A stretch of 28,791 bases of DNA from a virus (taxonomy: Duplodnaviria > Heunggongvirae > Uroviricota > Caudoviricetes): positions 1 through 28,791 of the IMG/VR virus record IMGVR_UViG_2534682161_000017; one strand, given 5' to 3'. How positions within the stretch are numbered: position 1 is the first letter of the stretch; each line of letters begins with the position of its first letter. Shown piece by piece: positions 1,322 through 28,791 of this stretch. A program made the position numbers and the translations under genes. Below the pieces are notes generated by a model, which searched no databases, was not told where the DNA came from, and saw only the letters and a program-made list of their open reading frames with translations.

Positions 1322-1420
1322 TTGAAGCCTGCTTTTTTATACTAAGTTGGCATTATAAAAAAGCATTGCTTATCAATTTGTTGCAACGAACAGGTCACTA
1401 TCAGTCAAAATAAAATCATT
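1322..1420. other. attL: Prophage attL: bacterial arm, lambda core GCTTTTTTATACTAA (1331..1345), and P' arm with Int arm-type sites
   Basis: The 15-bp lambda core is followed by gttggcattataaaaaagcattgcttatcaatttgttgcaacgaacaggtcactatcagtcaaaataaaatcattatttg, which matches the lambda attP P' arm as I recall it. The host-type sequence ctgaagcct lies on the other side. Confidence 0.85.
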
Positions 1421-2489
1421 ATTTGATTTCAATTTTGTCCCACTCCCTGCCTCTGTCATCACGATACTGTGATGCCATGGTGTCCGACTTATGCCCGAGA
1501 AGATGTTGAGCAAACTTATCGCTTATCTGCTTCTCATAGAGTCTTGCAGACAAACTGCGCAACTCGTGAAAGGTAGGCGGATCCCCTTCGAAGGAAAGAC
1601 CTGATGCTTTTCGTGCGCGCATAAAATACCTTGATACTGTGCCGGATGAAAGCGGTTCACGACGAGTAGATGCAATTATGGTTTCTCCGCCAAGAATCTC
1701 TTTGCATTTATCAAGTGTTTCCTTCATTGATATCCCGAGAGCATCAACATGCAATGTTGTTGGGATGGCAATTTTTACGCCTGTTTTGCTTTGCTCGACA
1801 TAAAGATATCCATCTACGATATCAGACCACTTCATTTCGCATAAATCACCAACTCGTTGCCCGGTAACAACAGCCAGTTCCATTGCAAGTCTGAGCCAAC
1901 ATGGTGATGATTCTGCTGCTTGATAAATTTTCAGGTATTCGTCAGCCGTAAGTCTTGATCTCCTTACCTCTGATTTTGCTGCGCGAGTGGCAGCGACAGG
2001 GTTTGTTGTTATATGGCCTTCAGCTATTGCCTCTCGGAATGCATCGCTCAGTGTTGATCTGATTAACTTGGCTGACGCCGCCTTGCCCTCGTCTATGTAT
2101 CCATTGAGCATTGCCGCAATTTCTTTTGTGGTGATGTCTTCAAGTGGAGCATCAGGCAGCCCCCTCCTTATTGCTTTAATTTTGCTCATGTAATTTATGA
2201 GTGTCTTCTGCTTGATTCCTCTGCTGGCCAGGATTTTTTCGTAGCGATCAAGCCATGAATGTAACGTAACGGAATTATCACTGTTGATTCTCGCTGTCAG
2301 AGGCTTGTGTTTGTGTCCTGAAAATAACTCAATGTTGGCCTGTATGGCTTCAGTGATTGCGATTCGCCTGTCTCTGCCTAATCCAAACTCTTTACCCGTC
2401 CTTGGGTCCCTGTAGCAGTAATATCCATTGTTTCTTATATAAAGGTTAGGGGGTAAATCCCGGCGCTCATGACTTCGCCTTCTTCCCAT
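1419..2489 (-). CDS. int: Tyrosine integrase, lambda Int type (356 aa)
   Basis: Translation begins MGRRRSHERRDLPPNLYIRNNGYYCYRDPRTGKEF and ends HLLGHKSDTMASQYRDDRGREWDKIEIK, with the catalytic R..HxxR..Y signature. It sits next to attL. Confidence 0.97.
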   Translation of the reverse strand: MGRRRSHERRDLPPNLYIRNNGYYCYRDPRTGKEFGLGRDRRIAITEAIQANIELFSGHKHKPLTARINSDNSVTLHSWLDRYEKILASRGIKQKTLINYMSKIKAIRRGLPDAPLEDITTKEIAAMLNGYIDEGKAASAKLIRSTLSDAFREAIAEGHITTNPVAATRAAKSEVRRSRLTADEYLKIYQAAESSPCWLRLAMELAVVTGQRVGDLCEMKWSDIVDGYLYVEQSKTGVKIAIPTTLHVDALGISMKETLDKCKEILGGETIIASTRREPLSSGTVSRYFMRARKASGLSFEGDPPTFHELRSLSARLYEKQISDKFAQHLLGHKSDTMASQYRDDRGREWDKIEIK

Positions 2490-2685
2490 TTCTGATCCTC
2501 TTCAAAAGGCTACCTGTTACTGGTCGATTTAAGTCAACCTTTACCGCTGATTCGTGGAACAGATATTCTCTTCCATCCTTAACCGGAGGAGGGAATATCC
2601 TGCATTCGCGCACCCATCGACGAACTGTTTCAAGGCTTCTTGGGCGTCGCTGGCGAGCGTTCCACTCCTGAAGTGTCAAGTACAT
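2467..2685 (-). CDS. xis: Excisionase, lambda Xis type (72 aa)
   Basis: Translation MYLTLQEWNARQRRPRSLETVRRWVRECRIFPPPVKDGREYLFHESAVKVDLNRPVTGSLLKRIRNGKKAKS. It overlaps the int start, as in lambda. Confidence 0.95.
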   Translation of the reverse strand: MYLTLQEWNARQRRPRSLETVRRWVRECRIFPPPVKDGREYLFHESAVKVDLNRPVTGSLLKRIRNGKKAKS

Positions 2686-2724
2686 CGCAAAGTCTCCGCA
2701 ATTACACGCAAGAAAAAACCGCCA

Positions 2725-27189: not shown

Positions 27190-27202
27190 GAGAGAGTTAA
27201 CC

Positions 27203-28114
27203 ATGGACCAAACCACCGACATTCAGGCTTCTGAAGAATTAACCCTGCCCGGCAATCATGCAGCGGCATCTGCTGATGGCTTAGTTGTCGATAATGCCAA
27301 CGACAGCGCAGGTCAGGAAGAAGGCTTTGAGATTGTCCTGAAAGACGATGAGAAACCAAAACAAGACCCGGCAACTAATGCTGAATTTGCCCGTCGCCGC
27401 ATCGAACGCAAACGCCAGCGTGAGCTTGAGCAGCAGATGGAAGCGGTTAAGCGTGGAGAGTTGCCGGAGCACCTGCGGGTGAACCCTGAGTTACCAAAAC
27501 AACCAGACCCTAACGATTATCTTTCCGAAGATGCACTGGCTAAGTACGACTATGACCAGAGCCGCGCACTGGCTGCCTTCCAGCAGGCAAACAGTGAATG
27601 GCAGATCAAGGCCATGGACGCACGAAGCCAGGCTGTCGCCGAGCAGGGTCGCAAAACTCAGGAGTTCACCCAGCAATCAGCGCAATACGTCGAGGCAGCC
27701 CGTAAGCACTACGACGCAGCGGAAAAGCTCAATATCCCTGACTATCAGGAGAAAGAGGATGCATTCATGCAACTGGTGCCGCCAGCAGTCGGTGCCGACA
27801 TCATGCGCCTCTTCCCGGAGAAATCCGCTGCTCTCATGTATCACCTTGGTGCTAATCCTGAGAAAACACGCCAGTTACTGGCGATGGACGGGCAATCCGC
27901 GCTGATTGAACTCACTCGACTGTCAGAACGTTTAACTCTCAAGCCTCGAGCCAAGTCTGTTTCAGAAGCCCCGTTACCTGATGAACCCATTCAGGGACAC
28001 GCTGTTGCTGCAAATATCTCTGCGATTGAAAAGCAGATGGAAGCGGCAGCAAACAAAGGTGATGTAGAGACGTACCGCAAGCTTAAGGCGCAACTGAATA
28101 AAGGAATTCGATAA
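27203..28114 (+). CDS. Scaffolding protein, P22 gp8 type (303 aa)
   Basis: Acidic, helical protein of 303 aa (the P22 gp8 length), positioned between portal and coat. Confidence 0.85.
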
Positions 28115-28791
28115 TGGCATTAAATGAAGGTCAACTGGTCACATATGCTCTGGATGAAATCATCGAAACCGTCCAGAACCTGACGCCAATGGCGTCCAAA
28201 GTGACAAAATACACCCCTCCGGCAGAATCCATGCAACGTTCAAGCAACACCGTGTGGATGCCTGTTGAGCAGGAAGCGCCAACTCAGACAGGCTGGGATT
28301 TAACTGGCAACGCAACCGGGATTCTGGAACTCTCCGTGAAATGCAACATGGGCGATCCGGATAACGATTTCTTCGAGCTTCGTGCAGATGACCTGCGTGA
28401 TGAGCGTTCTTACCGTCGCCGCATCCAGGCATCCGCCAAAAAACTGGCGAATAACATTGAGTCAGCAATTGCCAAACAGGCAACCGAAATGGGCTCACTT
28501 GTTGTTCACGATACCCGCGCAATTGGTCCATCTACTGGCCTGTCTGGCTGGGATTTTGTGTCTGATGCAGAGCGCCTGATGTTCTCCCGTGAGCTAAACC
28601 GCGATATGGGCATCAGTTACTTCCTGAACCCTGACGATTACCGCAAAGCAGGCCGCAACCTGGTAGATGGTGACATCTTTGGGCGCGTTCCTGAAGAAGC
28701 GTATCGTAACGGTACTATTCAGCGTCAGATTGCTGGCTTTGATGAAATTCTTCGCTCACCGAAACTTCCGGCAGTTACCAAGTCAACCGCT
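28114..28791 (+). CDS. Major coat protein, P22 gp5 type (5' partial; continues beyond the window)
   Basis: [54 protein letters not shown]...[14 protein letters not shown]...[13 protein letters not shown] closely parallels P22 coat protein. No stop codon before the window end. Confidence 0.88.

Follow-up and report, generated by a model that had tools for sequence, protein, structure and literature searches.

Mosaic structure of a probable P22-like lambdoid prophage at the lambda attachment site of Escherichia coli

The stretch of DNA analysed here (IMG/VR record IMGVR_UViG_2534682161_000017; hereafter the window, 28,791 nt, whose positions serve as coordinates throughout) holds the host gene ybhC at its left end and, from 1331 to 28791, 27,461 bases of prophage. 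We are highly confident that this part is the left 27.5 kb of a lambdoid prophage of about 39 kb, which belongs to the P22-like podovirus group (Lederbergvirus-like), is inserted at lambda attB and is a many-way mosaic. An earlier note on the same DNA had described a three-way mosaic of lambda-type integration and late control, P22-type heads and a distinct immunity region, joined at clean module boundaries. The gene order is lambda-like (att-int-xis ... cIII-N-cI-cro-cII-O-P-nin-Q-lysis-packaging/heads), with divergent early operons from pL and pR and with putative antitermination circuitry (N/nut and Q/qut) recognisable by sequence, and the element is lambdoid on both counts. Its main blocks and their best matches are as follows.

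1331-2968: att core, int and xis; JEP4 98.5%, HK97 98.9% (HK97 to 2722)
7597-11238: abc2, gp26, ssb, Rad52-like gene, kil, cIII and gp33; Sf6 98.3%
11118-11730: orf156; HK97 98.5%
11841-13960: immunity cassette and flanks; Stx1a_10051 98.5%
13839-17592: cII, orf90, O, helicase, ninB and ninE; JEP4 and CUS-3 98.1% (CUS-3 to 16895)
17925-21885: nin region, Q and lysis genes; HK97 95.6%
22658-28791: DUF2560 gene and heads; APC_JM3.2 97.2%

Nearly every piece of the prophage has a counterpart of 93-100% identity in some sequenced phage, and the best donors are JEP4/HK97, CUS-3, HK620, Sf6, Stx1a_10051 and APC_JM3.2 rather than lambda or P22. A greedy tiling at an identity of at least 93% drew on nine of ten reference phages, whose 18 blocks cover 23,545 of the 27,461 bases (86%); the mosaic of the earlier note thus stands, with its modules correctly assigned, but it is many-way rather than three-way. 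The remainder includes 1,331 bases of the insertion sequence (IS) IS2; a large share of what is then left matches POCJ13, SJ46, Stx phages (Stx2), N7 and HK140 at 93-97%, in alignments that span 43-69% of each query. Uniform similarity to one known phage was also looked for: HZ41, the best single phage, accounts for 51% of 1331-25000, and no deposited phage reaches 80%. The exact set of modules is not found in any deposited phage and is a new combination of a well-known kind.

Breakpoints were mapped against lambda, P22, HK620, Sf6, CUS-3 and other phages, as the earlier note had suggested, and both the identity map (per 100 bp) and the ends of high-scoring segment pairs show the mosaic. Many of the points where similarity ends lie between genes or at their edges, and six junctions coincide with 'boundary sequences' (bsq) annotated in the Sf6 and CUS-3 records.

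7104-7134: Sf6 bsq3, 5' end of the ea22-like gene
11126-11238: Sf6 bsq4, tL2 region
12047-12228: CUS-3 bsq5, nutL and pL leader
16864-16939: Sf6 bsq6, ninA/tR2
20499-20669: CUS-3 bsq3, upstream of S
21519-21566: Sf6 bsq7, inside Rz

The clean boundaries claimed earlier thus describe many of the junctions, these six among them, but other breaks are intragenic: in O at base 512 of 887, in N at 56-115 of 306, in Rz at 113 of 438, and also in ninX, ninF, the ea22-like gene, the DUF551 gene and, relative to P22, in the large terminase gene (terL) near 24400. The breakpoint in O is the classic split between an origin-binding N-terminus and a helicase-interacting C-terminus. The genome papers of HK620, Sf6, HK97 and HK022 reportedly invoke homologous recombination at short conserved linkers together with illegitimate events filtered by selection, and the junctions at boundary sequences fit that established model of linker exchange. 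The prophage is an ordinary many-way lambdoid mosaic in which equivalent modules have been swapped, often at boundary sequences and sometimes inside genes. All four genome papers are in the reference list of PMC2629481.

The prophage adjoins the host chromosome at the following features, in which percentages refer to amino acids (aa).

1..1284, minus strand: ybhC, host gene beside lambda attB, outside the prophage (annotated in RefSeq for the identical region)
1331..1345, no strand: attL core GCTTTTTTATACTAA (lambda O core), a 15/15 match to lambda 27724-27738, flanked by the bacterial arm (left) and the P' arm (right)
1419..2489, minus strand: int, lambda/HK97-type tyrosine integrase, 99% to lambda Int and 100% to HK97 and JEP4
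2467..2685, minus strand: xis, excisionase, 99% to lambda and 100% to HK97/JEP4

Similarity to lambda starts exactly at 1331 and runs at 98.7% nucleotide (nt) identity through int, xis and the next open reading frame (ORF) to 2967 (lambda 27724-29361). With lambda-type int and xis beside the 15-bp core and the P' arm, this is the site-specific recombination module of lambda, and from the core and flanks read in the sequence, Int and Xis would recombine the att core. The other end of the prophage is seen in E. coli MFDS1019527 (NZ_CP169309.1), to which the window is 99.9-100% identical in three blocks, the two copies differing by two IS insertions (one per copy) and nine single-base differences. 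In that genome the attR core is found 91 bp away from ybhB, and bioA-D follow further out; attL adjoins ybhC in the window, and the cores flank the prophage at attB between ybhC and ybhB, in the gal-bio interval. A contiguous match that takes in ybhC, int and a P22-type terminase likewise occurs in several further E. coli genomes.

Beyond the end of the window the sister prophage continues with gp4, gp10, needle, gp14, gp7, gp20, gp16, an Arc-family gene, a tailspike and an acyltransferase, and then the att core, so that the tailspike and attR for which the earlier note had proposed a search are both present. This right part is also mosaic, with APC_JM3.2-like and Sf6-like portions: the needle and gp16 are of Sf6 type (97-98%), and coat and gp4 are of APC_JM3.2 type. 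The tailspike (NZ_CP169309.1, 3493395-3496438 region) has in common with those of P22, Sf6, HK620 and CUS-3 only the N-terminal head-binding part, 19-38% of its length. The acyltransferase-family gene that follows it and adjoins attR is a candidate O-antigen-modifying conversion gene.

The packaging and head genes, all on the plus strand, occupy the right end of the window; their identities (aa) to P22 were computed with the P22 record rotated to keep gene 3 contiguous.

22736..22978, plus strand: DUF2560 gene (hkbM / P22 orf80 homologue)
23058..23546, plus strand: small terminase, TerS (P22 gene 3), 162/162 aa identical to P22 gp3; PDB 3P9A, E=1e-108
23524..25023, plus strand: large terminase, TerL (P22 gene 2 type), 93% to P22
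25024-27189, plus strand: portal, 77% to P22 and 33-34% to Sf6, HK620 and CUS-3
27203-28114, plus strand: scaffold, 85% to P22
28114-28791, plus strand: coat, N-terminal part of a gene cut by the window end, 71% to P22

The P22 pac 22-mer GAAGATTTATCTGAAGTCGTTA lies at 23325-23346, inside the TerS gene, with a 22/22 match (0 expected by chance), and the P22 type of the terminases, portal, scaffold and coat is as the earlier note had stated, pac included. An apparent break in P22 similarity at pac (23321/23323) was rejected as an artefact, since the linear P22 record is opened at that point; with the rotated record terS is continuous at 100% aa. The genes stand in P22 virion order, 3-2-1-8-5 in the window and 4-10-26-14-7-20-16 plus tailspike 9 in the sister genome's continuation, and according to the ε34 genome paper the morphogenetic genes of P22-like phages match P22's one-to-one. 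The procapsid proteins are of the P22 sequence type and not of the Sf6 or CUS-3 types: coat is 71-73% identical to P22 and finds no match or one of 25% in Sf6, HK620 and CUS-3. Among P22-type procapsid genes, those for portal, scaffold and coat here belong to the E. coli branch, with 99% aa identity to APC_JM3.2 and HZ41.

Identity to P22 steps down inside terL near 24400, from 96.9% nt for terS and the first ~880 bp of terL to 74.6% after that point. Terminase genes move independently of procapsid genes, because in JEP4 terS and terL of this type stand beside a portal and coat of CUS-3 type. Judging by these homologies, the P22-type terminase would start headful packaging at P22 pac into scaffold-assembled P22-type procapsids, and since TerS and the pac site are those of P22, an ability for generalised transduction is predicted in a cattle E. 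coli. In the RefSeq sister record the genes for R, TerL and portal are annotated as frameshifted pseudogenes; all three are intact and of the expected length in the window (differences at 21115, 23941, 24442 and 26714), and because the ORFs are intact here, the 'pseudogenes' are probably single-base assembly errors in NZ_CP169309.1.

The immunity region and the genes and sites on either side of it are arranged as follows.

11727..12032, minus strand: N antiterminator, HK620/CUS-3 type, 91% aa to CUS-3 N and 95% to HK620 N over the N-terminal 63%
12138..12181, minus strand: nutL, with boxA GGCTCTTTAACA and boxB hairpin GTCCCGCCGAAATGCGGGAAC (-10.5 kcal/mol)
12225..13847, no strand: immunity cassette of ~1.6 kb, with pL/OL, terminator, orf98, cI, OR/pR and cro
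12227-12255, minus strand: pL
12230, 12255 and 12299: OL sites
12443-12462: bidirectional terminator
12467-12763, minus strand: orf98, small protein, PHROG 18389 (function unknown)
12804-13511, minus strand: cI, repressor, Pfam HTH_3 and Peptidase_S24
13524, 13548 and 13573: OR sites, with a degenerate one at 13583
13570-13599: pR
13623-13847: cro, Pfam YdaS/P22_Cro
13855..13899, plus strand: nutR, with boxA CGCTCTTTAACA (13855-13866) and boxB TTCCCGCCGAAATGCGGGAA (13880-13899), 100% identical to HK620 9415-9527, hairpin -12.5 kcal/mol

The operators are 14-bp palindromes, ATAAC-N4-GTTAT, found at six sites with at most one mismatch (0.63 expected); five of the six fall in OL/OR, overlapping pL and pR. 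No tblastn match to cI or cro was obtained in lambda, P22, HK620 or HK97; against Sf6 and CUS-3 cI gives partial matches only (33-38% identity, ~30% coverage) and cro none by tblastn, and blastn of 12225-13847 yields no nucleotide match in lambda, P22, HK97, Sf6 or CUS-3. The cassette belongs neither to imm-lambda nor to P22 immC, from whose operators ATAAC-N4-GTTAT differs, nor to the 434 and HK620 types. The alignment with HK620, whose operators are ATAC-N5-GTAT-like, collapses exactly at OL1, and from the stop codon of cro onward, through nutR, the sequence again resembles HK620 (at 100%) and CUS-3. The nearest solved structures are distant, being the N-terminal domain of the 434 repressor (E=1e-7, 60 aa, helix-turn-helix only) and the Cro protein PDB 3BD1 (E=5e-5).

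N matches PHROG 271 (E=3e-36) and has a Pfam N_peptide match below the cut-off of that family; it is 58% identical to lambda N across 36% of its length, and no match to it was found in P22. From 11841 to ~12224, through the 5' two-thirds of N, nutL and the pL leader, the sequence is ~98% identical to HK620 as far as the first operator, and with nutR included the identity to HK620 is 97-100%. Hairpins of boxB with boxA lie downstream of pL and of cro. By these matches, N and both nut sites are of the known HK620/CUS-3 type and lie outside the immunity cassette. The earlier statement that cI, cro, the operators, N and the nut boxB are neither lambda's nor P22's is therefore upheld by blastn, tblastn and the ATAAC-N4-GTTAT operators. 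The region is indeed distinct from those of lambda and P22, but only 12225-13847 qualifies, with N and nut outside it, and it is not unique.

By its cI, cro, orf98 and operators the cassette is of the type seen in Stx1a_10051 and the PA28-type Stx1 phages. Stx1a_10051 is 98.5% identical in nt over 11841-13960 and has a cI protein 99.1% identical in aa, and the PA28-type cI is 84% identical. Of 5426 complete E. coli genomes, 98 carry 80% or more of the cassette. In the 98-aa product of orf98 an N-terminal stretch is hydrophobic, probably a single transmembrane helix, and the C-terminal part is charged; the gene sits between the bidirectional terminator and cI, the position of rex in lambda, and is a candidate prophage-expressed exclusion gene. 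We consider it an even chance that the cassette defines an experimentally uncharacterised heteroimmunity group, with CI and Cro acting on ATAAC-N4-GTTAT, that is mobile between P22-like podovirus prophages and Stx1-converting phages; the co-transcribed orf98 could then provide an exclusion function. CI, with its S24 peptidase domain, and Cro would bind ATAAC-N4-GTTAT at OL and OR, as the sites and their overlap with pL and pR suggest, and homology predicts CI/Cro switching with RecA-stimulated S24 autocleavage of CI. The HK620/CUS-3-type N would antiterminate via the boxA/boxB nut sites.

Rightward of nutR follow the genes for establishment of lysogeny, replication, late control and lysis.

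13957..14250, plus strand: cII, lambda type, 98% aa to lambda CII and 100% to CUS-3
13966-13979, minus strand: CII box of pRE, TTGC-N6-TTGC, at the start of cII
14199-14226, minus strand: oop-like terminator
14608..15494, plus strand: O, replication initiator with ori iterons; N-terminal part of CUS-3 type (94%), C-terminal part 100% with HK97 and CUS-3
15491..16867, plus strand: DnaB-type replicative helicase (P22 gene 12 type) in place of lambda P, 99% to HK97/CUS-3 and 90% to P22 gp12
16893-16916: tR2-like terminator
16941..19616, plus strand: nin region, with ninB, ninE, ninX, ninF, a roi/KilAC antirepressor-like gene, a DUF1364 gene, rusA and ninH
19613..20369, plus strand: late control region, with Q, pR' and tR'
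19613-20236, plus strand: Q, 100% aa to lambda Q and 98% to P22 gp23
20279-20307, plus strand: pR', TTGACT-17-TAAATT, inside the lambda-matching stretch 19603-20336
20341-20369, plus strand: tR' hairpin, which gives a short late leader
20670..21887, plus strand: lysis cassette
20670-20993, plus strand: S, holin, 99% aa to lambda
20977-21453, plus strand: R, lambda-type endolysin, 97% aa to lambda
21450-21887, plus strand: Rz, 92-96% to P22, HK97 and Sf6 and 57% to lambda
21649-21834, plus strand: Rz1, embedded in Rz (from translation)

O is frameshifted in the window: a run of five C at 15137-15141, against six in the sister genome, leads to a stop at 15222 after ~176 in-frame residues. The O of CUS-3 is in frame with the six-C version, and the shift falls inside the ori region. 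Apart from O, every essential gene in the window is an intact ORF. The helicase has no match in lambda, and the replacement of lambda P by a DnaB-type protein was rightly recognised earlier. CII and CIII would establish lysogeny via the lambda-type pRE box, O and the helicase would replicate the genome, and the S, R, Rz and Rz1 proteins (holin, endolysin and spanin) would lyse the cell.

The elements that the earlier note had matched to lambda (int, xis, attP core, cII, ninB, Q, pR', S and R) do match it, at 99% (Int), 99% (Xis), 98% (CII), 99% (NinB), 100% (Q), 99% (S) and 97% (R) aa identity, and P22 gp19 lysozyme has no match in the lysis cassette. Its description of late control as lambda-type is right for Q and pR', but Q and NinB (97% to P22) fail to discriminate lambda from P22, because they are near-identical to both, and tR' is not lambda-like: lambda similarity stops at 20336, and that of P22 and HK97 runs on through tR'. 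The late-leader terminator lies only ~35-60 nt downstream of pR', as in the short P22/HK97 type, compared with the 194-nt 6S RNA of lambda. The lambda/P22-type Q would antiterminate at pR'. No tRNA was found in a scan of the window, which therefore holds no Sf6/phage-21-like tRNA cluster after Q, and an Rfam scan of the whole window at gathering thresholds gave no match, hence no curated RNA family for the nut, oop and late-leader elements here.

Between Rz and the DUF2560 gene, ~850 bp (21888-22735) contain no annotated or convincing gene. An island of ~140 bp within it (22250-22389) is 94-100% identical in P22, HK97, HK620, Sf6, CUS-3 and APC_JM3.2, with HZ41 lower in its first half, and a terminator-like hairpin lies at 22606-22623. 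This interval may be a remnant of a rha/kilA region with another boundary sequence.

The early-left part of the prophage, on the minus strand apart from its IS2, comprises accessory genes, a recombination module and the region up to N.

2725..7600, minus strand: early-left accessory (ea) genes, in pieces 93-97% identical to CUS-3, HK620, Sf6, POCJ13, SJ46 and Stx phages
5555..6885, plus strand: IS2, 1331 bp, inside the ea22-like gene, 99.7% identical to annotated IS2 copies
7611..9588, minus strand: recombination module, Sf6 gp25-gp28, 98-100% aa
7611-7904, minus strand: abc2, anti-RecBCD, 93% aa to P22
7918-8397, minus strand: orf159, putative endonuclease, 100% to Sf6 gp26; PHROG 'endonuclease', E=3e-47
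8407-8880, minus strand: ssb, Sf6 gp27, 99-100%
8881-9588, minus strand: Rad52/Rad22-family annealase, 99% to Sf6 gp28
9597..11718, minus strand: two small ORFs, kil, cIII, TolA-like gene, terminator and orf156 region (from the homologue table)
9843-9995, minus strand: kil, within the Sf6-matching stretch
9980-10111, minus strand: cIII, within the Sf6-matching stretch
10136-11158, minus strand: TolA-like homologue of Sf6 gp33
11124-11145: tL2-like terminator
11248-11718, minus strand: orf156, HK97 gp45-like

The annealase matches Pfam PF04098 (Rad52_Rad22) with E=2.2e-25 and 89.8 bits against a cut-off of 20.3, and is thus a Rad52/Rad22 (Sak-type) annealing protein; with its SSB partner it is homologous to Sf6 gp28/gp27, and the replacement of lambda Red by such a pair, proposed earlier, is confirmed. 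The intact orf159 (159 aa, between abc2 and ssb) carries no annotation in the RefSeq sister record. The ea region encodes orf55 (lambda p35-like), a CUS-3-like orf94, orf86, a 401-aa EaA/DUF551 protein (3505-4710), an HK620 hkaF-like orf63, the ea22-like gene split by IS2, an Sf6 gp22-like orf99 and a DUF2737 gene. The 401-aa protein is read from a single unbroken minus-strand ORF that the RefSeq record splits into three DUF551 pseudogene fragments; it is EaA-like, with 34% identity to P22 EaA over its full length and a C-terminal DUF551 domain.

The IS2 element (IS3 family) has the ends TAGACTGG...CAAATCCA, a 5-bp target duplication GCGCC at 5550-5554 and 6886-6890, and its ORFs orfA/orfB at 5601-6011 and 5969-6874. 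It is absent from the NZ_CP169309.1 prophage, which instead carries a 1.3-kb IS3-family element in the TolA-like (Sf6 gp33-like) gene, at window ~11021-11024; the insertions in the two sister copies are independent. Genes like ea22 are accessory (the lambda b2/ea region).

Several points weigh against our reading of the window as a many-way mosaic P22-like prophage at attB, or limit it. Every function is assigned by homology and is to that extent putative. The right third of the prophage is known from the sister genome NZ_CP169309.1 only and lies outside the window. The reference set for the tiling was hand-picked, and the number of donors is illustrative, not a history. A literature search for the Stx1a_10051 or PA28 immunity type found no description of its specificity. 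The O frameshift, if real, disables replication of this copy; it could equally be a homopolymer sequencing error.

That last point leads to the alternative that survives best, which would modify our reading: this copy could be a defective (cryptic) prophage in which truncation of O abolishes replication initiation and the IS2 inside the ea22-like gene marks the onset of decay. We regard this as unlikely, if well worth keeping in mind, since one base more or less in a homopolymer is the kind of error typical of sequencing, ea22-like genes count as accessory, and every other essential gene of the window is unbroken; among these are R, terL and portal, all three listed as 'frameshifted' in NZ_CP169309.1.

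Far less probable is a three-parent hybrid with clean module joins, in which lambda supplied integration and late control, P22 the heads and one unknown phage the immunity region. Lambda and P22 do match the genes named for them at high identity, and the immunity cassette matches neither; but even with a sensitive blastn lambda aligns to only 4,985 and P22 to only 11,859 of the 27,461 bases, and other phages match better or longer (HK97 over 17925-21885, Sf6 over 7597-11238, JEP4 over 13961-17592 and APC_JM3.2 over 22658-28791), so that the tiling already contradicts such a hybrid. Moreover, Q and NinB are common to lambda and P22, portal to coat is only ~75% identical to P22 in nt, N and the nut sites are of HK620/CUS-3 type, and several breakpoints are intragenic. 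An assembly artefact, a chimeric contig of reads from several co-resident lambdoid prophages, can be dismissed even if similar prophages are numerous in E. coli (a median of seven matching places per genome) and can confuse assemblers, because the independent complete chromosome NZ_CP169309.1 shows the same arrangement at the same near-identity in all three aligned blocks, the two copies differ merely by the IS insertions and single bases counted above, the expected cores are in place in attL at ybhC and in attR at ybhB, and the blocks continue seamlessly over the junctions in one or another reference phage.

The many-way mosaic has little import beyond cataloguing, and serves as a clean worked example of lambdoid modular evolution: one genome unites lambda int/att, Sf6-type recombination, CUS-3/HK97-type replication, a lambda/P22-type Q and P22-type packaging. 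Comparison of the window with RefSeq flags errors of annotation and sequence in the sister record and a possible inactivating O frameshift in the present copy. That a Stx1a-converting phage has the same immunity cassette is relevant to superinfection immunity where harmless P22-like prophages and toxin phages meet.

Among known phages, JEP4 (Escherichia, MT740315, an isolated Lederbergvirus) has the same lambda-type attP core, int/xis at 98.5% nt with Int and Xis 100% identical in aa, the segment from cII through ninE (13839-17592) at 98.1%, TerS at 99% and TerL at 94% aa, and the N N-terminus and nutL in common with the prophage. The combination of lambda int/att with a P22-like virion is thus already present in an isolated phage. 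JEP4 differs in its CUS-3-type portal and coat (portal 34% aa), a P22 C2-like repressor, a recombination module with a Sak4-like ATPase, and a different Q. The Escherichia phages APC_JM3.2, IME10 and HZ41, of the P22-type head group, are 96-97% identical in nt and 99-100% in aa from terS through coat, except for the TerS of HZ41 (82%); APC_JM3.2, however, has a different integrase and a primase/helicase replication module, and neither it nor HZ41 carries the immunity cassette of the prophage.

P22 itself (Salmonella, NC_002371) has the same virion gene order, an identical TerS (100%) and pac, and related Q (98%), helicase (90%) and Abc2 (93% aa), but its portal, scaffold and coat are only 71-85% identical in aa (74.6% nt), and the prophage lacks its int/att (thrW), immC, erf and gp19 lysozyme. 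Lambda (NC_001416) and HK97 (NC_002167) resemble it in the attP core, int and xis (98.7% and 98.9% nt, respectively), cII, ninB, Q, pR', S and R, and HK97 additionally in 17925-21885 (95.6%), the helicase (99%) and orf156; both are siphoviruses with unrelated head and tail genes, and lambda's Red, P, immunity region, N/nut sites and 194-nt late leader are absent from the prophage. Stx1a_10051 (LC744178) and PA28, Stx-converting phages of 54-61 kb, have a like immunity cassette, PA28 having been compared over the immunity region only, but Stx1a_10051 has none of the head, late-control or integration regions in common with the prophage. Sf6 (Shigella, NC_005344) is alike over 7597-11238 (98.3%) and CUS-3 (E. 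coli, CP000711) over 13842-16895 (98.1%; cII, orf90, O and helicase) and in N (91% aa), whereas both have procapsid types of their own (portal 33-34% aa), argW-type integrases and different immunities.

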